Assembly: GCA_033763315.1 (NCBI GenBank)
Contig: JANRKS010000040.1
Coordinates: 160,001 to 224,000 of the forward strand
From: Deltaproteobacteria bacterium
Lineage (GTDB): Bacteria > Myxococcota_A > Polyangia > Fen-1088
Reading direction: 5' to 3'
Length of the DNA: 64,000 nucleotides
The notes below the pieces were generated by a model, which was not told where the DNA came from, ran no database searches, and was given only the letters and a program-made list of their open reading frames with translations. The position numbers were made by a program, and so were the translations under genes. Positions within the stretch are counted from its first letter, which is position 1; every line of letters begins with the position of its first letter. Of the stretch, positions 15,445 to 25,541 are shown piece by piece.

Positions 15445-18360
15445 TTGGACAAGCATCAGGCAAACGTTGTTGGACCCATCGGAGGATCCCCTGTGCTTAA
15501 GATTGTTTGTCCACCTTGCGTGTCTTCACTGTGCCTTACGCTCTCGACGTTGTTGGCACTCGCCGGCCTCAGCGCCTGTGCGACGAGCACCGACAGCATG
15601 TACACGCAGTTCGTAAAGCCGCCTTCGGACGCGCGGCCGTTTGTGCGCTGGTGGTGGAACGGGGGCCGGGTCAACGAGCGTGAGATCCTGCGCGAGCTCG
15701 ACGTTATGAACGCGGCGGGGATTGGCGGCGTTGAGATCAACACCATCGCGATGCCCGAGGGCGCCACGCCTCAATCTCTGGCGCAATCTCCGGCACTCGA
15801 ATGGTTGGGTGACGAGTGGACGAAGATGGTGCGCGCCGCCTCTGACGGGGCCAAGGCGCGTGGCATGACTGCTGACCTCATCGTGGGTTCGGGTTGGCCC
15901 TTCGGTGGCCGTTTCTTGGCTGTTGAGGAGCAAACCCAGCGTGTTTTGCTGGTCAAACGCGAGATCATTGGGCCACGCGTTTTAGACCTAAGCGTGGACG
16001 AGCTGGGGCAGGCGCCCATGCAAAGCGGTCGTCGCAGCCGGGACGAAAGCGCTCCGTCGCGACGGCAGTTGGCGATGGTGCGCCTTCTGCCCACCGACGC
16101 CATGGCGGCCACTTTCACCGCGGGTCACGATCTGACCCCGTCGGTCGCGGACGGACGCATCCGCATAAACGTTCCGCAAGGGCGTCACGCCATTTATGCC
16201 GTCTTTCGCGATTGGGGCTTTACGCACGTCAAGCTTGGCGCCCCAGGCGCCGACGGTCCGGTGGTCAACCATTTCGACGCGCAGGCGGTCCGAAAATACC
16301 TGGACCACATGGCGGCCAAGTTGTCGCCCGCGTTCGGCGGACGTTTGGGCAACAAGCTGCGCGCGTTGTTCATCGATAGCCTTGAATTGGATCACGCCAA
16401 CTGGGCAGACGACCTATTCGCCGAATTCCAACAGCGCCGCGGTTATGATTTGGCGCCCTATCTGCCGTTCGTTCTGGACGCCGACGTGCCGGACGCGGAT
16501 TCAGCGTTTTTCAGAACAGTGCGGCGGGCCCGTTACGATTTTGCGAGAACCCTGGTTGAGCTGTTCGAGACGCGCTTCGTTGGCACGTTCGTAAGGTTCT
16601 GCGAGGAGCAGGGCGTTTTGGCGCGCGTGCAGGCGTATGGACGCGAGACGCATCCGTTGCATGGGGGCATGCAGGTGCATTTGCCCGAGGGAGAAACGTG
16701 GCTGTGGCACGATGAGGCCAACCAGACGCGCATCAAGGTGGAATCCACCTCTGTGAATAAGTACGTGTCGTCGGCCGCGCATCTTACGGGCAAAGCGCGC
16801 GTCAGCTTCGAGGCCATGACTAATGCCGTGCCCGTCTTCCGCGAGACGTTGGCGAATTTCAAAGAAGGCCTAGATTTGTCCTTGCTGGCCGGCCTGAACC
16901 ATCCCGTCATTCACGGGTTCAACTACACGCCGCTAGAAGCGGGCTTTCCCGGCTGGGTGCGGTTTGGTTGCTACCTTAACGAACGAACCCCCTGGTGGCC
17001 TGCGTTTCCGCGCTTCTCCGATTACGCCGCACGCCTGGGCACGGTCTTACGTGCGTCTATGGCGCACGCTCAAGTGGCCATCTTGGCGCCGCGAGCAGAC
17101 GAGTGGGCGCGCCTTGGCCTGCTTTACCAGCCGTTCCCAGAGCAGCGCTTCCCTTGGTACCAATACAGCATGGCCTCGGCCGTCCAAAACGTGGGTTACG
17201 GCAGTGACTTCGTCAGCGAGCGCATTTTGCAGAACGCCACCTTTGCCGGTGGGCGCATCAACTTCGGCCCGCAAAGCTATGGGCTGCTGGTGATTCAAAA
17301 CGCCGAATCGCTGGAACTGCCAACCGTCAAAGCCGTCCTGGCTTACGCGAAGGCGGGGGGCCGCGTGTTGTTTGTCGGGCAAGTGCCAAGCCACGCACCG
17401 GGACTGGGACCAGATCTGCAGAACGACGGCGGCGTGGCCCAATTGATCAAAGAAGTGATGGCAAGCGACCACGTCAAAGTGGTGCCCGAGCCGCGTGAGG
17501 CTGACGGACTGCCCGGTTTGGTGGCCTGGAGCCAGCAGCATCTTCCGCCCACCGGCGTCACGCCTGCGGCGGTCATCGACGCACCGGTGGCCCACGTTTC
17601 GCAGATCCATCATGATTCGCCGTCCGGTGATGTGTTCTTTTTCGCGAACACGAGCACCGAGCAAGACGCGGCTTTGAAGGTAGCGTTTCCCACGACGCAA
17701 GGAACGCCTTGGCGGTGGGATCCGCAAACCGGTGAGCGCACGCCCTACCCCGCTGGCAACCCGCAAGCGTTGCCGATCACGTTGCAGCCACAACAGTCGC
17801 TGTTGTTGGTGTTCGAAAAGTCTGCACCCAGGTTGGCCGAAGGCGGCGTTGAGCGCTTGAGCACTGCCTACCCTGCCCCCGGTGAGCCGATCAAGCTGCG
17901 CCCGTTGACGACCCTCGATGGCCCGTGGCAGGCAAGCTTTCACCCGGCCAACAAAGGCGCGCCGTTTGCACGGGTGATGACAAAACTGCTCGATCTAAGC
18001 AAACAATCCGACGATCGGGATCTGGCCACGTTCGCCGGCACAGTCACATACACGCAAGGCTTCACACTGCCTGCCACGGGTCCGATGGTTCTAGATCTCG
18101 GTGAGGTCAATTCCGTGTCCAGCGTCAGCGTCAATGGCGTTGACCTCGGCACGCAATGGTATGGCCACCACCGCTACAACATCTCGCCAGCGCTCAAAGT
18201 GGGCGGAAACACCGTCACCATCACGGTTCACACAGTGCTGGCCAACATGATGAAGAACATGAAAGACAACGCCTCGGCGCAACACTGGGCGTTCTGGTTC
18301 AAGCCCATCCCCGCAGGTTTGGTGGGGCCGGTGGTGCTGGCACAGCCACAACCACTGTGA
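15445..18360 (+). CDS. GH106-like glycoside hydrolase (alpha-L-rhamnosidase-like) lipoprotein; start uncertain, possibly GTG near 15520
   Basis: Lipobox LSAC, RPFVRWWWNG, GGVEIN, GSGWPFGG, FIDSLE; C-terminal sugar-binding fold LDLGEV...GLVGPV. Confidence 0.82.
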   Translation: MDKHQANVVGPIGGSPVLKIVCPPCVSSLCLTLSTLLALAGLSACATSTDSMYTQFVKPPSDARPFVRWWWNGGRVNEREILRELDVMNAAGIGGVEINTIAMPEGATPQSLAQSPALEWLGDEWTKMVRAASDGAKARGMTADLIVGSGWPFGGRFLAVEEQTQRVLLVKREIIGPRVLDLSVDELGQAPMQSGRRSRDESAPSRRQLAMVRLLPTDAMAATFTAGHDLTPSVADGRIRINVPQGRHAIYAVFRDWGFTHVKLGAPGADGPVVNHFDAQAVRKYLDHMAAKLSPAFGGRLGNKLRALFIDSLELDHANWADDLFAEFQQRRGYDLAPYLPFVLDADVPDADSAFFRTVRRARYDFARTLVELFETRFVGTFVRFCEEQGVLARVQAYGRETHPLHGGMQVHLPEGETWLWHDEANQTRIKVESTSVNKYVSSAAHLTGKARVSFEAMTNAVPVFRETLANFKEGLDLSLLAGLNHPVIHGFNYTPLEAGFPGWVRFGCYLNERTPWWPAFPRFSDYAARLGTVLRASMAHAQVAILAPRADEWARLGLLYQPFPEQRFPWYQYSMASAVQNVGYGSDFVSERILQNATFAGGRINFGPQSYGLLVIQNAESLELPTVKAVLAYAKAGGRVLFVGQVPSHAPGLGPDLQNDGGVAQLIKEVMASDHVKVVPEPREADGLPGLVAWSQQHLPPTGVTPAAVIDAPVAHVSQIHHDSPSGDVFFFANTSTEQDAALKVAFPTTQGTPWRWDPQTGERTPYPAGNPQALPITLQPQQSLLLVFEKSAPRLAEGGVERLSTAYPAPGEPIKLRPLTTLDGPWQASFHPANKGAPFARVMTKLLDLSKQSDDRDLATFAGTVTYTQGFTLPATGPMVLDLGEVNSVSSVSVNGVDLGTQWYGHHRYNISPALKVGGNTVTITVHTVLANMMKNMKDNASAQHWAFWFKPIPAGLVGPVVLAQPQPL

Positions 18361-19077
18361 CTAAGCGCCCGTACGAGCCACGATCACAACCCGCCACGGC
18401 CGCACCCGTTTCACCACGGCGTCCGTGGCGAACCCCGCGGCCTCGCACGCCTGGCGCAACTCAGGGACCTTAAAGCCTTTGCGAATGGAAAGGCGCCCAT
18501 CCGCAAATACAAAACTGCGATGAAACGCCACCGCGGCCAGCGCGGTGTAAAGCGTATAGGCCATGGGTGATCGTTCGAGGTCATTGATCAGCAGCAGCCG
18601 TTTTGCGCAGGCGCGCAAGCGCGCCAACACGGGCACCAACGCGTCCGGTGGAATGTGGTGCAGCACGTGGTTGCAGTAAACGTAATCCGGCTTGGCCGCG
18701 CAGAGTTCATCCAAACTGCCTTGCACCACCCGCACGTTTGCAAACCGCAACAGCTTACGTTGCGCCCGCTCCACGGCCCTCGCCTCGCTATCCACGCCCA
18801 CAAGCTTGACCTGCAAACCCTGCTGTTGGCACCGCTTTGCAAGCCACGCCAACACATCCCCGCCGCCACAACCCAGCTCTGCGATGGTCACCTCGCCGCC
18901 GCGCGCCTTGATGTCAGCCAAGACTTCGCTTTGCAGCAGTGGCCGCATCCGCGACAACAAGCGGTTGATGATGGCCAGCTGCACATAAGTGCGCCGCAAC
19001 TTGGCGTCGTCGCAATCGGGCGCGTCCATCTGTTCGGGCAGATAGATCCGCTGCGCGAACGAAGGCAACCAGCTCAC
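18361..19077 (-). CDS. SAM-dependent methyltransferase of the type III PKS cluster
   Basis: EQMDAPD, ELGCGGGD SAM motif, NHVLHH, DGRLSIRKGF; GTG start overlaps PKS stop (GTGA). Confidence 0.88.
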   Translation of the reverse strand: MSWLPSFAQRIYLPEQMDAPDCDDAKLRRTYVQLAIINRLLSRMRPLLQSEVLADIKARGGEVTIAELGCGGGDVLAWLAKRCQQQGLQVKLVGVDSEARAVERAQRKLLRFANVRVVQGSLDELCAAKPDYVYCNHVLHHIPPDALVPVLARLRACAKRLLLINDLERSPMAYTLYTALAAVAFHRSFVFADGRLSIRKGFKVPELRQACEAAGFATDAVVKRVRPWRVVIVARTGA

Positions 19078-20192
19078 AGGGCCCCCGGATGCTCCAACAA
19101 CGCCGACTCCAACGTTAAACCAGGGCCAAAGCCGCAGGCATAAACGGCCCCTGCGGCAGGCAAAGCCCGTATGCGATCCAAGATGAACCACAAGGTCGCC
19201 GAACTCATATTGCCGCACGTGCGCAACACATCACGCGGAATGCCCACGTCACTTTCCTGCAGGTCCAAAGCCTTCACCGCTTTGTCCAAAATGGCAGGGC
19301 CACCGGGATGAATGGCCCAGTGCTTGATCGCCGCACGATCTACCTTCAGCTCCTGCAGCAACGTCTCGAAGGCGGCAGGCAAGTGCTTGTGCAACAAAAA
19401 TGGAACGCGAGGCGAAAGCGTCATGTGAAAGCCCGTGTCGCCAATCCGCCACGTCATATCCTCTTCGCCGTTTGGCAGCAAGAACGCGCCCGCGCCTTTG
19501 ATCAGCAACGGGGTGCCATTGACCAGACCTGCGTGCGTGGCTGTGCCCACCAAAGCCGCCGCCACACCATCGGCAAACAAAGAGTTGGCGATCAGCGTGT
19601 CGACGTCGGGCGAAAAGTGCACGTGCAAACTGCACAGCTCCACGTGAACCACCAACACCAAGGCGTTCGGATCGGCTTGGCAAATCGTGTTGGCGAGTTT
19701 CAGCGTCGAGAACCCCGCATAGCAACCCATAAAGCCCACGTGTGTGCGGTGAACGCGCGGCGACAACCCCAACGCACGCACCAACGCAATGTCGAAGCCG
19801 GGCGCCGTGAAGCCCGTGCAACTGGCCGTCACAAGATGGGTGACGCGCGCCTGCCAAGGCTTGCCGCCAAGGCCACCGCACGCCTTGATCGCCAGCACGT
19901 TCGCTTCGCGCTCAAACAATTGGTTCCGCGCCGCGGAGCCTGGTTCGGGGCGAAAATCCGCTGATTTTGGAAAGAACGTGCGCTCACTCGCGGACACGCC
20001 GTAGTCCGCAATGGCAGTGTAACGCTGCTCGATGCCCGAAGCGTTGAGCAGCCGCTCTAAGAACGCAAGGGCTTCTGGTTGTTCGTGAAACACCTGCCGT
20101 GCGATGGCAATCGATTGCTCGCGCGTGCAAACGTGAGACGGCAATGCAGTGGCGATGCTCAAAACACGCGGCGTAAGAGGTTGGGTGGTCAT
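19074..20192 (-). CDS. Type III polyketide synthase (chalcone/stilbene synthase-like)
   Basis: Catalytic triad GFMGCYAG, WAIHPGG, GNMSS; GFGPGLT. Confidence 0.95.
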   Translation of the reverse strand: MTTQPLTPRVLSIATALPSHVCTREQSIAIARQVFHEQPEALAFLERLLNASGIEQRYTAIADYGVSASERTFFPKSADFRPEPGSAARNQLFEREANVLAIKACGGLGGKPWQARVTHLVTASCTGFTAPGFDIALVRALGLSPRVHRTHVGFMGCYAGFSTLKLANTICQADPNALVLVVHVELCSLHVHFSPDVDTLIANSLFADGVAAALVGTATHAGLVNGTPLLIKGAGAFLLPNGEEDMTWRIGDTGFHMTLSPRVPFLLHKHLPAAFETLLQELKVDRAAIKHWAIHPGGPAILDKAVKALDLQESDVGIPRDVLRTCGNMSSATLWFILDRIRALPAAGAVYACGFGPGLTLESALLEHPGAL

Positions 20193-21323
20193 TTAGGCGG
20201 CGCTCTTTGCTTTTTTCAGTGCAGGCACGCGCGTGGTCCGCGCCACCCAGGGCAATAAGGGAGGCGCCCAGCGCAAGGCCCACATCGCCACGCGGGCGAA
20301 GGCTGGTTTGGGCAACCAACGGTGCAAAGGCAGCGCACGCCGCAAAACCTTGCGCGCCATGGCTCGCGCTTCCACGGCGTAAGCACAGGCTGGCAAACCT
20401 GCAGCGATGTGCTCGGCTGCCAACGAACCTGAAGCCATCGCGAATGAAATGCCGGTGCCGGTAAAAGACGGCAACACGGCAAATTGATCGCCCACAGCGA
20501 ACAAACCGGCCTGCGTTTCTTGATCGCAGTGACCGTAAGGCAAATTTGAGACGGTCTTGGGCCGGTCCCACACGGGCTGCGATTCCCGCAACACCATTTG
20601 CAAAAGCGGCACGCCGGGCGCAATCGCGCGCAACAGACCCAGCGGCTCGTCGCCCGCCTGCACGAGCACCGCAGGCAACACCAAAAGGCTCACAGTAAGC
20701 GTGCCCTCGCCCTCCACCGAGATCCCCCCATACCCGCCATCGAAGAAGAACAACCCCAAAGTTTCTCGCAAAGCCTCCGCCAAGGCTGCGCCCACGTGAT
20801 CGAAGTTCATCTTCCAGCCCACAAGGCTCGCTCCATCAGCGCCCGTGCGTGGGTGAAAACGGCCAAGCGCCTGTTTCCCGGTGGCCAACACCAGCGTCTT
20901 GACCTGCAAGCCTCCGTCGCTCGTGCGCAGCTCGAACGCCGTTTCGGTGCGCACCACATCTTTCACATGCACGCCCGTTTGCACATCCACCCCTCGCCCC
21001 TTGGCCTGCCCAAGCAGCCACGCGTCCAAAAAGCACCGCGAGACGCTTAACGCTTCGAAGGGCAACGGCATACCAACTGTGGCACCGTGTGATTCGATGC
21101 GCACGTGCCGCACGGGCGTGGCGCCCGCTTGCAACCACGGAAACGAAAGGGCATCCAACCTTGCCACAGCTTCGGGCGATAAGAACTCGCCGCACACCTT
21201 GTTTTTGGGCTCAGTGTTGCGTTCCAGAAGCTGACAGGCCACACCGGCGGCCGACAAGCCTAGGGCAGCCATGCTGCCTGCGGGACCCGCGCCCACCACA
21301 CACACGGGGCCGGTTGTCATCAA
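20193..21323 (-). CDS. FAD-dependent oxidoreductase/monooxygenase
   Basis: VVGAGPAG, KVCGEFLS, AVGD...PSFTGTGIS. Confidence 0.88.
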   Translation of the reverse strand: MMTTGPVCVVGAGPAGSMAALGLSAAGVACQLLERNTEPKNKVCGEFLSPEAVARLDALSFPWLQAGATPVRHVRIESHGATVGMPLPFEALSVSRCFLDAWLLGQAKGRGVDVQTGVHVKDVVRTETAFELRTSDGGLQVKTLVLATGKQALGRFHPRTGADGASLVGWKMNFDHVGAALAEALRETLGLFFFDGGYGGISVEGEGTLTVSLLVLPAVLVQAGDEPLGLLRAIAPGVPLLQMVLRESQPVWDRPKTVSNLPYGHCDQETQAGLFAVGDQFAVLPSFTGTGISFAMASGSLAAEHIAAGLPACAYAVEARAMARKVLRRALPLHRWLPKPAFARVAMWALRWAPPLLPWVARTTRVPALKKAKSAA

Positions 21324-21619
21324 ACCGCCTTTGGTTCGGCCACTGGAGGCGTGGTTAGTTGCGCCTGCACATAAACCACCACGTCGCCCACGGTGACGAA
21401 ACTGGCCGCCGCCTCTTGTGGGATCCGCACGTTCAGCATCTCTTCAAGCTCAAACAACAGCTCCAACGCCGCGAAAGAATCAAGACCGAGGTCATCTCGC
21501 AACTTTGTGCCATCCACCATGGCGCTGGCCTCAAGTTGCTTCTCGGTGACCTTGGCAAACGCCTGGGCCATCTTATCGACGATCATGTCGCGTGAGGGGA
21601 ACGCCGTTTCTTGCACCAT
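21320..21619 (-). CDS. Acyl carrier protein
   Basis: DLGLDSFAALE phosphopantetheine Ser motif, TVGDVV. Confidence 0.93.
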   Translation of the reverse strand: MVQETAFPSRDMIVDKMAQAFAKVTEKQLEASAMVDGTKLRDDLGLDSFAALELLFELEEMLNVRIPQEAAASFVTVGDVVVYVQAQLTTPPVAEPKAV

Positions 21620-21622
21620 GGA

Positions 21623-22867
21623 TCACTCCTTGCCAAACAAAAGCGCGACGTTGACGTTGCCAAAACCAAAAGAATTCGAGATCGCAAACCGCGCGCGCGT
21701 GGCCGTAGGCGTGGCCACAACGGCCAGTGGGCACAAGGGGTCGCGCGCCGTGAGGTTTGCGTTCGGCGGCAAGAGCCCTTCATGCAACGCTTTTACGGTC
21801 GCGATCGCTTCAAGCACCCCCGCCGCGCCCAACGTGTGGCCCGTGATCGGTTTGATCGATGAGATCGGCACACCGGCGGCGGCCTCGCCAAACACCAACT
21901 GCATGGCGCGCGCTTCGGCCACATCGTTCTCCCGCGTGGCCGTGCCGTGCGCGTTCACGTAACCGATTTGCTCGGGCGAAACGCCCGCATCACGCAAAGC
22001 CCCCTTCATGGCGGCCGCCGCATCCTCGCCATCGGGACGCGCATGCACGGCGTGGTACGCACCCAACGATTGGCCATAACCGCGCAGCACGCCATAGATG
22101 CGCGCGTTGCGGGCTTGCGCGTGCGCCAACGATTCAAGCACCAAAGCCCCTGCGCCTTCACCCAAGACGAAGCCATCGCGCTTCTCATCGAAGGGTTTGC
22201 AAGCCGAAGCCGGCTCATCGGCCGAGGCCGCTTTCGCCAACACGCCCAGCAAGGAAAACGCTGTCATGGAAAACGGTGATAGGGGCGTCTCCGCACCACC
22301 CGCCACAATCACATCCGCATCACCTTGCGCGATGGTGCGCATCGCTTGCCCCAAAGCGTGGGCGGAAGACGCGCACGCGCTGCTGATCACGAAGCCCGGC
22401 CCGCGCAATTGCAAAGACTGCGCAACGTCTGTGATGATCGCGGTGGGCGACACACGCGGCACCGTGTGGGGATGCATGCGGCTCTCACGCGATTGCATCA
22501 CGCGCCACATTTGTTCTTCCTGGAATTGAAGGCCTCCCAAGCCAGAGCCGAAGATCACACCCGCACGCGCACCCAACCCGGGGCCCGCAGGCAGCTCAAG
22601 ACCGGCGTCTCGCCACGCCTGCTGGCAAGCCACTTGGCTCAACCTCACCACCCGTTCGCCTTTGCGCACACCCCACGATTGCGCCGCTTCATCGAGGGCC
22701 CGATCGTCCACGGCCGCTTCGTAAAGTGCTGCCGGCGTCACCGTTTCAGAAGCCACCGTCCGCCGCACCGCCGATACACCCAAACTGACCCTGCGCCAAA
22801 AGGACGCCACATCGCAACCAGCGGCGCTCGCCACCCCTAAGCCCGTTATCGCAACGGCTCTACCCAT
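21623..22867 (-). CDS. Beta-ketoacyl-ACP synthase II-like (FabF family)
   Basis: RAVAITGLG, SSACASS (Cys), YVNAHGTAT and GHTLGAAG (His-His), SNSFGFG. Confidence 0.93.
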   Translation of the reverse strand: MGRAVAITGLGVASAAGCDVASFWRRVSLGVSAVRRTVASETVTPAALYEAAVDDRALDEAAQSWGVRKGERVVRLSQVACQQAWRDAGLELPAGPGLGARAGVIFGSGLGGLQFQEEQMWRVMQSRESRMHPHTVPRVSPTAIITDVAQSLQLRGPGFVISSACASSAHALGQAMRTIAQGDADVIVAGGAETPLSPFSMTAFSLLGVLAKAASADEPASACKPFDEKRDGFVLGEGAGALVLESLAHAQARNARIYGVLRGYGQSLGAYHAVHARPDGEDAAAAMKGALRDAGVSPEQIGYVNAHGTATRENDVAEARAMQLVFGEAAAGVPISSIKPITGHTLGAAGVLEAIATVKALHEGLLPPNANLTARDPLCPLAVVATPTATRARFAISNSFGFGNVNVALLFGKE

Positions 22868-22948
22868 GTAGGTGTTCCTAGCACGCCCCAGCCCCCCTTG
22901 CCCCGGCGCGTTCCACCGAAGCCTCAGGGCCGATGTCAACCGCGGCCG

Positions 22949-23221
22949 TTACGGATTGGCCCCACGATCGTGAGGTAAACACTCACGCAACCTTGCGAGC
23001 TGGGCGAGAACTTCGCGAACCTGTGGGAGCCACGCCGTTCCCTGCGGCGACAAACGCATGCCTTTGGATGTACGCAAAAACAGCGACACGCCTAACTCGT
23101 CTTCCAAGCTGCGGATCCGTCGCGTCAAGGGAGGTTGGCTTACGCGCAAACGTCTGGCGGCACGACCCACGTGGCCTTCCTCGGCCACGGCCACGAACGA
23201 CTCAAGCTGCACCAACGACAT
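22949..23221 (-). CDS. LysR-type wHTH-only transcriptional regulator (90 aa, no effector-binding domain)
   Basis: MSLVQLESFVAVAEEGHVGRAARRLRVSQPPLTRRIRSLEDELGVSLFLRT; stop follows the linker helix. Confidence 0.88.
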   Translation of the reverse strand: MSLVQLESFVAVAEEGHVGRAARRLRVSQPPLTRRIRSLEDELGVSLFLRTSKGMRLSPQGTAWLPQVREVLAQLARLRECLPHDRGANP

Positions 23222-23230
23222 AACCCAACG

Positions 23231-23305
23231 ATACACATCCTGTGCCTGGCATGCGATGCAAAACCGGTATTGGACGTCTTCCTTGATCACCGACACGCTT
23301 GCCTC
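23231..23305. promoter_or_regulatory. Divergent lysR/map control region: LysR T-N11-A box(es) and back-to-back promoters
   Basis: ATGC-N7-GTAT at 23256-23270 and imperfect ATAC-N7-GTGC at 23231-23245; TGGACG-N17-CACGCT-N6-GTG toward map; TATCGT-N6-ATG toward lysR. Confidence 0.6.
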
Positions 23306-24064
23306 GTGTCGATTCACATTCATACCCGCACCGAATGCGACGCCCTTCGAAAAGCCGGGCGCGTGGCGGCCGCGACGTTGGCGGCCATTGGAAAACGCAT
23401 TGTCCCAGGGATAAGCACCGGGCAAATCGACGAATGGGTCCGCCAGCACACGCGGGCCCAAGGCGCCCGCCCGAGCCAGCTTGGCTATCATGGCTTTCCC
23501 GCCGCCGTGTGCACGAGCCGCAACAACGTTGTGTGCCACGGCATTCCGAACCCGGGTGAAATGCTGTGCGACGGCGACATCATCAACGTCGATGTCACAA
23601 GCCACATCGGTGGGTTTCATGGCGATACGTCGGCCACCTTCTTTGTTGGTGTGCCAAGCGCGGCTGCGCGCCGTCTGGTGCAAACGACCCACCAGTGCCT
23701 CATGGCAGGCATCGAGCAGGTGTCGCCCCGCGCACGTTTGGGCGACATCGGCGCCGCCATTCAAGAGGTGGCCAAGCGGGCTGGTTTCTCGGTGGTCACA
23801 GCGTTTGGCGGCCACGGCATCGGCAAACAGATGCACATGCCGCCGCACATCGACCACGTTGGTAAACGCGGCCTCGGCCTGCGGCTTGCGCCCGGCATGG
23901 CTTTCACCATCGAACCCATGCTGAACGAGGGCAGCGCCGAGGTGGAACAGCTCGCAGATGGATGGACTGTGGTGACCAAGGACGGCGGCCTGTCAGCGCA
24001 GTTTGAGCACACAGTGCTCGTAACAGAGGCTGGCTGCGAGGTCTTAACTAGTTTGCGAACTTGA
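23306..24064 (+). CDS. map: Type I methionine aminopeptidase
   Basis: CTSRNNVVCHGIP, metal ligands NVDVT...GDTS, GHGIG..MH, TIEPM, AQFEHT; GTG start at 23306. Confidence 0.96.
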   Translation: MSIHIHTRTECDALRKAGRVAAATLAAIGKRIVPGISTGQIDEWVRQHTRAQGARPSQLGYHGFPAAVCTSRNNVVCHGIPNPGEMLCDGDIINVDVTSHIGGFHGDTSATFFVGVPSAAARRLVQTTHQCLMAGIEQVSPRARLGDIGAAIQEVAKRAGFSVVTAFGGHGIGKQMHMPPHIDHVGKRGLGLRLAPGMAFTIEPMLNEGSAEVEQLADGWTVVTKDGGLSAQFEHTVLVTEAGCEVLTSLRT

Positions 24065-25541
24065 CCGTCGCGTCCTTGAGCACAAACCGCGCGTCGCGCG
24101 CGTTGCGAAGGGGCTTGCCGTGCACAGACAGGCGCTTAATCACCACGCCCTCAATGTTGTGCTGCGGATCGTAGCCCCAAAACAAGGAGAACGGAAACAC
24201 GCCATCCACCACCTGCACGTTGTCGATCACAACGTCGCGGATCTTGCCGCGAAACGCCGCATGTTTGGCCAGGTCCTCGGCGGGAACCGTCAGCACGCCA
24301 TCCCAGGCACCGTGCAGGTAACGTCGCTCTCGTTCTTCTTTGCTTTCGGGCCGATCGGCGCTGTACTGGCTTAGGAATATCGCAAAATCGAACAACTTCT
24401 GGGTGGAATCCTCCACCCGCACATTCGAGAAGCGCACATTAGAAATCGTGGCATTGTCGCCGTTGTGAATGCTGAACACGGCACCATCTTCCACGTGAAT
24501 CACATCGCAGTCGTGGTAGTAGATGTTTGAGATCACATCGGAACGCAGTTCAAAACCAATCTCAATGGCATTGCCCCAAGCCGCATTCCAAAAAACGCTG
24601 TCCCACACTTCGATGTCTTTGCTGGTCACCTCTGTGGGATAGTCGAAAATGGCTTTGACCACGATGTTGTCGTCTTTGGTGTGAAAGAACGATTTTGAGA
24701 TCTTCACATTGCGGCTGCGCACGATGTCGATGCCATCGTCGCCCCCCGCATCACTTACGATCTTTAGGTTGGTGAACGTGAGGTTCTCGCAGTTGACGGG
24801 CACCACCTCCCACGCCTGGCCATTGGATAGCACCACGCCCTCGACCTCGATATTCTTGCAATCGCGCAAACTGATAAAGTGTCCACGCACCTTTTTGCCC
24901 TTCAACAGTTCGCGCAGGTTGGTGCCATCTAAGATGCCGCGGCCCAAGATCTTCACGTTGGATACGCCCTTGCCCTGGATGCTGCCCTCGACCACCGCGC
25001 CACCGGCGATGTAGACCGTCTCATTGTCTTTCACCTCGATCAAGCCCGGCTTGTGCACCTGGCCGGCCGCGAAGTAATGAACGCCAGGCGCGTTGGGCAG
25101 CGGCGCGTTCTTTTCGATAGGGTTCGCAAAAAGGAACAGCGGGTGCCGCTTGGGCTGACCATTGAGTTCCACAGAAAAGTTTCCGGCCTTCGAAAGTTTG
25201 AATGAAATCTTGTTGCCGTTCGTCACAGGCAACACGCGCCGGCTTAACGGGCGAACGTCGACCCACTTGGGATCGCGGCGCGATGTGATAACCACCTCCG
25301 CGGCGCCCTCGAACTCGAAAGAAGCGATCCCCGCAACCGGCGACTTATAGACAAAGACGTCTTTGCCGTTGACCTGCACGCTGTAATCTGGATCGTTTTC
25401 GAGGCCAGCGGGCGCCGGATACGTTCTCACTTCCGCGGCGGCGGGGGCAGCCAAGGCACACACGGGCGTCATGAAGGCTGCCATGAGGGTGCCGACGAAA
25501 GAGGATTGGCACAGGAGTCGAACCCGACGAGTCACTTGCAT
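24048..25541 (-). CDS. Secreted parallel beta-helix glycoside hydrolase (GH28/GH49-like)
   Basis: Signal peptide, YIAGGAVVEG, GRGILDG, DDGIDIV, TKDDNIVVK. Confidence 0.75.
   Translation of the reverse strand: MQVTRRVRLLCQSSFVGTLMAAFMTPVCALAAPAAAEVRTYPAPAGLENDPDYSVQVNGKDVFVYKSPVAGIASFEFEGAAEVVITSRRDPKWVDVRPLSRRVLPVTNGNKISFKLSKAGNFSVELNGQPKRHPLFLFANPIEKNAPLPNAPGVHYFAAGQVHKPGLIEVKDNETVYIAGGAVVEGSIQGKGVSNVKILGRGILDGTNLRELLKGKKVRGHFISLRDCKNIEVEGVVLSNGQAWEVVPVNCENLTFTNLKIVSDAGGDDGIDIVRSRNVKISKSFFHTKDDNIVVKAIFDYPTEVTSKDIEVWDSVFWNAAWGNAIEIGFELRSDVISNIYYHDCDVIHVEDGAVFSIHNGDNATISNVRFSNVRVEDSTQKLFDFAIFLSQYSADRPESKEERERRYLHGAWDGVLTVPAEDLAKHAAFRGKIRDVVIDNVQVVDGVFPFSLFWGYDPQHNIEGVVIKRLSVHGKPLRNARDARFVLKDATVKFAN

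Follow-up and report, generated by a model that had tools for sequence, protein, structure and literature searches.

LysR-type transcriptional regulators (LTTRs) such as CbnR, BenM and CatM are roughly 300-amino-acid (aa) tetramers in which a winged helix-turn-helix (HTH) and a linker helix precede an effector-binding domain (EBD). They start with Met-Glu, bind at two or three sites in each promoter, and read operators of the ATAC-N7-GTAT type within a divergent promoter. Here we examine a gene for a far shorter protein of this type, termed mini-LysR, that is located in a stretch of 64,000 nucleotides from a Deltaproteobacteria bacterium (Myxococcota_A; Polyangia; Fen-1088; assembly GCA_033763315.1, contig JANRKS010000040.1, positions 160,001 to 224,000). 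This whole stretch is called the window below. The gene is divergent from a paralog of map, which encodes a type I methionine aminopeptidase (MetAP). mini-LysR has the winged HTH and linker helix of the regulators named above, and an operator of the same type is found in the divergent promoter region, but only a tail follows the linker helix, there is a single site, and the N-terminus is Met-Ser.

A second group of systems may share the logic of this gene pair. For SecM-SecA, MifM-YidC2 and VemP-SecDF2, the literature describes a small protein, itself a substrate of a machinery, that reports the activity of this machinery and turns on a spare component or a paralog, acting via regulated translation arrest of an upstream open reading frame (ORF) in the same operon (PMC7897499, PMC6037786, PMC7793623). 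mini-LysR differs in that its gene is divergent, its product is a folded DNA-binding domain, and there is no arrest peptide. If the regulator is a substrate of methionine excision, as predicted below, then the likeness is one of logic and not of membership. Plant ERF-VII factors, which start with Met-Cys, are a further precedent, wherein residue 2 is conserved since Met excision exposes the residue that sets the activity of the factor. These proteins differ in being eukaryotic, in sensing oxygen via Cys oxidation and degradation, and in not regulating a MetAP. Finally, a second type I MetAP is present beside the housekeeping enzyme in B. subtilis (YflG) and in M. tuberculosis (MapA/MapB), and we know of no dedicated regulator for either. 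In the loci described here, by comparison, the extra MetAP comes and goes with its own miniature regulator. To our knowledge, how bacteria adjust their capacity for methionine excision is essentially unknown.

A LysR-type family without an effector domain

There are 61 unique representatives of mini-LysR among the 62 loci that were read, and they form a natural, conserved, DNA-binding-domain-only LysR-type family across the Myxococcota. The set is composed of 32 loci drawn in part from the class sample, 10 obtained by an alignment-based contig scan and 20 more, 17 of which lie outside the class. It contains relatives, which are not independent. The mini-LysR ORF is complete, 81-124 aa in length and devoid of an effector domain in every one of the 61 unique loci. 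Full-length homologs, whose prevalence the original prediction had named as a sign of local truncation, do not occur among them.

There are 852 short proteins (49-158 aa) that match mini-LysR at E<=1e-8, and their named sources are Polyangiaceae, Nannocystaceae, Paraliomyxa or Myxococcota, with Paraliomyxa miuraensis and an isolate of the Nannocystaceae among them. In the class sample, 63 of 301 genomes carry exactly one copy (E<=1e-18). As tallied from the table of matches, the family profile is matched at E<=1e-32 in 38 of 401 genomes of the phylum sample; below this threshold there is a gap, and the weaker matches that follow are in frames of roughly 300 aa. The contig scan with the family alignment is unspecific, and among the matches listed 10 of 80 loci belong to the family and 69 are full-length LysR loci. 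The latter served as controls. One locus, L117, is cut by the contig end. No clade member with the LysR_substrate domain (PF03466) was found in a search limited to longer proteins, and the longer database entries prove to be either gene calls extended too far upstream, in antisense across map, or proteins with long low-complexity tails. A separate group of roughly 600-650-aa proteins (P0249, P0255, P0258 and about 40 others) matches mini-LysR twice and appears to represent tandem or fused double LysR proteins.

The original prediction presented the window protein as a LysR of 90 aa with just a winged HTH and a linker helix, and translation, Pfam and a structural model agree on this. The winged HTH comprises residues 3-57 and the linker helix residues 59-81, and a floppy tail of 9 residues follows. 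Pfam HTH_1 (PF00126) covers residues 4-61 (E 1.6e-22), Pfam finds no PF03466 domain in the protein, and no NCBIfam model scores above its own cut-off. The next minus-strand gene encodes a beta-ketoacyl synthase whose Pfam domain begins at residue 3 of the reading from ATG 22867. It is separated from the mini-LysR stop codon by 81 nucleotides (nt; 22868-22948), or by 9 nt if TTG 22939 is its start codon. With either gap, no effector domain can fit after mini-LysR, as had been claimed at the outset. Thus, mini-LysR has the HTH_1 domain and linker helix of an LTTR without the effector domain, and the usual LTTR tetramer interface would be missing as a consequence.

An AlphaFold (AF2) model of mini-LysR, made with 32 family members as the alignment, has a predicted local distance difference test (pLDDT) value of 94. 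It consists of helices at residues 3-15, 18-25 and 29-43, a wing at 48-57 and a linker helix at 59-81 that is modelled with high confidence. About 80 residues are folded, followed by a variable C-terminal tail whose model confidence is lower. The best solved matches, both by profile and by Foldseek, are CbnR (including the DNA complex 5XXP), then BenM and CatM, with profile E-values of 3e-30 to 1e-25 and Foldseek template-modelling (TM) scores of 0.85-0.89 against their DNA-binding domains. These relatives (5XXP, 3M1E, 4IHS/4IHT) and mini-LysR have the same type of recognition-helix motif, SQPPLTR, and the linker helix of mini-LysR aligns with those of CbnR and BenM up to about residue 88. Their stand-alone DNA-binding domains in the PDB are laboratory constructs, whereas mini-LysR is natural. 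According to the PDB entry titles, those of CbnR and BenM have been crystallised on DNA. Such stand-alone CbnR and BenM domains bind as dimers. By analogy, it is probable that mini-LysR binds its own box as a dimer as well.

In open-access papers and preprints (supplements excluded), no description was found of a natural DNA-binding-domain-only LysR family or of a LysR/map pair. A word search of a review of LTTRs (PMC11495319) returned no mention of truncated or EBD-less LysR proteins.

An extra methionine aminopeptidase gene next to the regulator

The gene that diverges from mini-LysR had been proposed to be an intact type I map gene, and this holds. Its product scores 292.9 bits with TIGR00500 (cut-off 171.35) and aligns over its full length with solved type I MetAPs. 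In a 32-row alignment of linked MetAPs, residues D96, D107, H170, E203 and E234 as well as H78 and H177 are invariant, and we take these to be the metal-ligand and His positions, respectively. A divergent map paralog is located within 450 base pairs (bp) of mini-LysR in 56 of the 61 unique loci, and within 2 kb in 60. The genes downstream of mini-LysR vary among loci and no third gene is conserved beside the pair. Therefore, the conserved unit is the mini-LysR/map pair, and the two genes very probably constitute a module of regulator and target.

The linked MetAP is an extra copy. There are at least two map copies in five of five carrier genomes, versus one in five of five non-carriers of the same family. 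A maximum-likelihood (ML) tree places 57 linked MetAPs on one side of a branch and 11 unlinked ones on the other, with a Shimodaira-Hasegawa-like approximate likelihood ratio test (SH-aLRT) value of 87, and none of 500 label shuffles was as low. This tree came from a quick search, with L031, L038 and L162 dropped as short matches and L051 dropped as a duplicate. No alignment column strictly separates linked from unlinked MetAPs at the first threshold, and a looser screen gives nine columns. Among the differences, Q58 is present in 57 of 57 linked MetAPs versus P or F in unlinked ones, G168 is nearly invariant in linked MetAPs versus C or V in unlinked ones, and R46 is found in 55 of the 57 linked proteins. 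We presume that Q58 lies in the segment that holds the substrate-pocket Cys in E. coli MetAP.

The second map gene of the genome that contains the window encodes a protein with 50% identity to the linked copy. It carries an N-terminal SEC-C zinc-binding motif (PF02810), and the linked paralog is without such an extension. The SEC-C MetAP gene adjoins a His-rich ORF that, by eye, resembles a transporter of the cation-diffusion-facilitator type.

The shared intergenic region

The two genes are spaced 85-90 bp apart, and one conserved box of the ATAC-N7-GTAT type is located between them. The dyad takes the forms ATAC-N7-GTAT and ATGC-N7-GTAT across loci, and AGAT-N7-GTAT in the family to which the window belongs. 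Immediately after it comes TGGA(C/T), which is replaced by GGG in distant members. A relaxed version of the box plus [TG]GG is present in 54 of the 56 adjacent intergenic regions, versus two matches in 371 kb of flanking sequence (both strands), and the two regions that miss it (L049 and L053) hold near variants. The window contains a single copy of the more specific pattern ATRC-N7-GTATTGG, none of 100 shuffles has one, and with the pattern extended by one base there is a single occurrence in the 7.6-Mb genome. A T-N11-A dyad in a divergent promoter region is a hallmark of LTTRs and is present here, and there is just one conserved box per locus. Since the nearest solved relatives read ATAC-N7-GTAT, the box fits the protein. 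This sequence is also the binding logo depicted for BenM in the review cited above (PMC11495319).

The original prediction placed an ATGC-N7-GTAT box against a map promoter, TGGACG (23271-23276)-N17-CACGCT (23294-23299), and both the positions and the conservation of the box bear this out. The sequence GTATTGG, which joins the right half-site to the putative -35 element, is kept in 35 of 42 loci, with the variants GTATGGG and GCATTGG in more distant loci. By eye, a CA(G/C)NNT element is located 6-8 nt before the map start codon in many loci. Counted from the first T of TTGGAC, the map start codon is 36-39 nt away in 33 of the 34 loci for which the start pattern was found, and 36-37 nt away in 33 of 54 loci when starts are extrapolated from alignments. 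Because 36-39 nt is the distance from a -35 element to a transcription start site, the map mRNA looks leaderless, with the box centred near -44. The codon TTG 23270 was also considered as the start of map and rejected, because the conserved start is mostly 37 nt further on and out of frame with it.

There is a counterpart on the side of the regulator. In 33 of 61 loci the mini-LysR start codon is preceded by a TANNNT hexamer whose end is 6 nt away in 24 loci and 7 nt away in 9, and no other distance within 45 nt of the start is represented by more than two loci. It is rather likely, judging from these spacings, that the transcripts of both genes are leaderless. In compact loci the box begins 35-39 nt from the mini-LysR start codon, which is the mirror image of the map side. 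This mirror distance, together with the location of the box about 44 nt from the map start, argues for control of both genes by the same site.

Start codon and second residue of the regulator

The residue that follows the initiator Met is central to the proposal evaluated below, and therefore the position of the start codon matters. In the annotation the window protein is called as 124 aa (P0003), with a start 34 codons upstream of ours. However, the start codon aligns with Met1 of the window protein in 61 of 61 loci (35 ATG, 26 GTG), and in 9 loci an in-frame stop codon is located just upstream with no other start codon in between. These 9 loci, and the TANNNT hexamer that precedes the start by 6-7 nt in 33 of the 61 loci, indicate that the true start does not lie further upstream, a possibility that had been raised for this gene. 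The mini-LysR open frame does run on upstream in the window (22949-23857, minus strand), antisense through map, and long antisense open frames are common in high-GC DNA. The longer start was examined as a candidate and rejected, the 'LysR' entries of 124-316 aa (P0003, P0127-P0131 and P0135) being over-calls that extend antisense into map.

With the start placed by comparison among loci, translation agrees with the Met-Ser-Leu beginning assigned to the window protein in the original prediction. Residue 2 is Ser in all 61 unique loci. Its codons are AGC (27), AGT (6), TCG (16), TCC (9), TCA (2) and TCT (1), or 33 AGY and 28 TCN, and the use of both Ser codon families argues for selection on the amino acid. 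Among 32 members, which share as little as 49% identity with the window protein, 12 columns are invariant, including those of M1, S2 and Q5, and positions 4, 7 and 8 vary. In the same members, L65, A68 and L72 of the linker helix are nearly invariant. Two of 60 short cluster representatives from a 50%-identity library begin with (Met/Val)-Asp-Leu and look like ordinary LysR fragments.

Full-length LysR proteins are different at this position. Among the matches listed, the aligned residue in the 69 control loci is D (32), E (29), T (4), S (2) or N (2). Where it is T or S, the codon at aligned position 1 is not a start codon, and so none of the 69 begins with Met-Ser. Of 122 further full-length relatives, 117 were usable, and these have E (82), D (28), T (2), S (2), K (1), N (1) or R (1). 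In the 90 proteins for which the aligned position is indeed residue 2, E is found in 74, D in 14, K in one and N in one. Thus, the expectation that residue 2 is small and conserved in mini-LysR, and that full-length LysR proteins mostly start with Met-Glu or Met-Asp, agrees with the data. MetAPs leave the Met in place on Met-Glu and Met-Asp and remove it from Met-Ser. By this specificity rule, mini-LysR is a predicted MetAP substrate.

A possible mode of action

The reading that we favour joins three parts, namely the module, its control by a dimer, and an input from N-terminal Met excision. As a whole it is tentative, with slightly less than an even chance of being right. mini-LysR would bind the single dyad as a linker-helix dimer, by analogy with CbnR and BenM, and once bound would control the accessory MetAP and, in most loci, its own gene. 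The weak CAnnnT -10 element and the box that abuts the -35 element suggest activation of map, and repression by occlusion of the -35 element is equally possible.

Perhaps a regulator without an effector domain takes its signal from the state of its own N-terminus. Cellular MetAP would process the Met-Ser start, such that the ratio of the Met-retaining to the Met-free form reports the excision capacity of the cell. DNA binding, activation or stability might then not be the same for the two forms. If excision fell short, for example owing to inhibitors, metal limitation or failure of the SEC-C housekeeping MetAP, the spare MetAP would be turned on and the deficit thereby corrected. Three features point towards such an input: the gene under presumed control encodes a MetAP, the usual sensor domain has been lost, and residue 2 has moved from a non-cleavable acid to Ser, the best-cleaved of the small residues, and is frozen there. 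It is nevertheless doubtful that excision of the N-terminal Met of the regulator is the input signal, and we are equally hesitant to call mini-LysR a transcriptional 'monitoring substrate' of this process.

This proposal predicts that residue 2 decides the response. If excision were proven to be the input, the system would be categorically new. The principle of a monitoring substrate would then extend from translation arrest to transcription, and the ligand of a transcription factor would be replaced by its own status as an enzyme substrate. There would also be an inducible spare MetAP in these bacteria, which is relevant to the natural MetAP inhibitors of myxobacteria. Among such compounds are the bengamides, which are presented as natural MetAP inhibitors from Myxococcus virescens in a passage of PMC9228497. 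A Leu154 detail of bengamide self-resistance was looked for in that paper and not found. Apart from its input, a phylum-wide, single-copy family that lacks an effector domain and is tied to one target suggests that a DNA-binding module can regulate alone, and it raises the question of where the signal enters. The pair also offers a compact system of two genes and 90 bp for studying the control of Met excision.

Several observations weigh against one part or another of this reading. With regard to the pairing, map lies 1-2 kb away in L013, L031, L038 and L059, and no map gene is found within 2.5 kb in L159. The branch that sets the linked MetAPs apart has a support of 87 from a quick tree search. 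In L136 (G153:C21:21639-22391) the map gene linked to mini-LysR has one in-frame TGA, which could be due to a pseudogene, a sequencing error or recoding; a second copy with 59% identity is intact elsewhere in the same genome (G153). With regard to the promoters, a generic sigma-70 scan returns none in 22850-24200. The scanner is blank because the hexamers are weak, and the reading of the map promoter rests on conservation across loci and on spacing, not on the strength of its putative consensus elements. In addition, the distance from the box to the mini-LysR start codon ranges from 36 to 107 nt, the upper value being that of the GTATTGG half-site, which is 11 nt further on than the beginning of the box. 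Because this distance varies, autoregulation with a fixed geometry is not universal.

The N-terminus itself provides the remaining points. The invariance of Ser exceeds what cleavability alone would require, given that Ala, Gly or Thr are also cleavable. In the model Ser2 is placed directly before helix 1 (residues 3-15), at the N-cap position, and the need for a cap could account for part of the constraint. Other conceivable causes of the invariant Ser are a modification specific to this residue and a founder effect. Moreover, the canonical relatives of this subgroup work with Met1 kept, which means that a retained Met does not by itself disable such a regulator. One Met-Thr start (P0317) occurs among the 60 short cluster representatives. 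However, the residues that are both helix-capping and cleavable are essentially Ser, Thr and Gly, and a demand for both capping and efficient excision therefore predicts Ser with rare Thr, as is found.

Alternative explanations

One possibility is that no signal reaches the regulator, or that only its abundance is controlled. mini-LysR would be a constitutive dimer whose level is set by autoregulation, by other regulators or by turnover linked to its tail, and Ser2 would serve as an N-cap. We regard this as unlikely, yet many features of the family are in keeping with it, including the missing effector domain, a box that is symmetric between both promoters in compact loci, and a C-terminal tail that is variable and modelled with lower confidence. 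The capping argument draws on the location of Ser2 directly before helix 1 and on the capping-competent D, E, S, T and N found in full-length relatives. But capping alone predicts a mix of these five residues, not Ser in 61 of 61 loci over both codon families. Furthermore, a single-copy and tightly linked regulator across the phylum is hard to explain if a plain promoter suffices.

Another possibility is that the input arrives via a partner or a modification. The MetAP paralog or another protein might act in trans, a full-length LysR might form a heterodimer with mini-LysR, or Ser2 might be phosphorylated or acetylated. The conserved linker helix (L65, A68, L72) could serve a partner, the fact that Ser itself is invariant rather than any small residue would suit a modification, and Myxococcota are rich in Ser/Thr kinases. 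However, the pair has no conserved third neighbour, and no calculation or search made here supports a partner. An uncontrolled complex prediction for the MetAP paralog with mini-LysR stayed below the mark of 0.32, with scores of 0.02 and 0.01, and speaks neither for nor against binding. Explanations of this kind are quite improbable in our view.

Finally, a local truncation or decaying pseudogene of a full-length LysR gene has a negligible probability, because the short form is complete, single-copy and conserved with its fold in 61 loci of many families and no clade member in the search of longer proteins is full length, even if the other 14 LysR-like matches in the genome are all in open frames of 289-363 aa and a different gene cluster begins right after the mini-LysR stop codon.

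Feature coordinates and neighbouring genes

The features of the mini-LysR/map pair, and the second MetAP gene of the genome, are compiled in Table 1.

Table 1. Coordinates of the genes and predicted regulatory elements (window positions, except for the SEC-C MetAP gene)
Feature	Position	Strand	Description	Basis
mini-LysR CDS (coding sequence)	22949..23221	(-)	90 aa + stop, N-terminus MSLVQLESF	translation
map paralog, type I methionine aminopeptidase	23306 (GTG)..24064	(+)	252 aa, no N-terminal extension	Pfam M24, TIGR00500
LysR-type operator ATGC-N7-GTAT	23256..23270	.	one mismatch from ATAC-N7-GTAT of the CbnR/BenM/CatM group; centre about -44 from map start	
-35-like hexamer TTGGAC of map	23270..23275	(+)	first T = last T of box	conservation across loci
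-10-like hexamer CACGCT of map (CAnnnT type, weak)	23294..23299	(+)	6 nt before map GTG	putative
-10-like hexamer TATCGT of mini-LysR	23228..23233	(-)	ends 6 nt before ATG	putative
SEC-C MetAP	L002 1489-2478 = G000:C1, about 300.2-301.2 kb	(-)		Pfam PF02810

On the far side of map is a convergent gene of the GH28 family. Its 3' end covers one terminator-like GC-rich hairpin (24088-24102, minus strand) just past the map stop codon, and the count of such hairpins in this region of the window is not above that of shuffles. Downstream of mini-LysR there are five tightly packed genes (18361-22867, minus strand) that, by Pfam, encode a ketosynthase, an acyl carrier protein, a flavin adenine dinucleotide (FAD) oxidoreductase, a type III polyketide synthase (PKS) and a methyltransferase. 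The mini-LysR/map pair and this type III PKS cluster together fill a stretch of 5.76 kb (18340-24102). In a genome of the same genus (G002) the stretch is missing, and on contig C75 about 62 bp separate the GH28 gene from the 971-aa gene on the other flank. Therefore, the 5.76 kb represent an insertion or a deletion between congeners. Another genome, G001, has homologs of the PKS cluster elsewhere and only one map gene.

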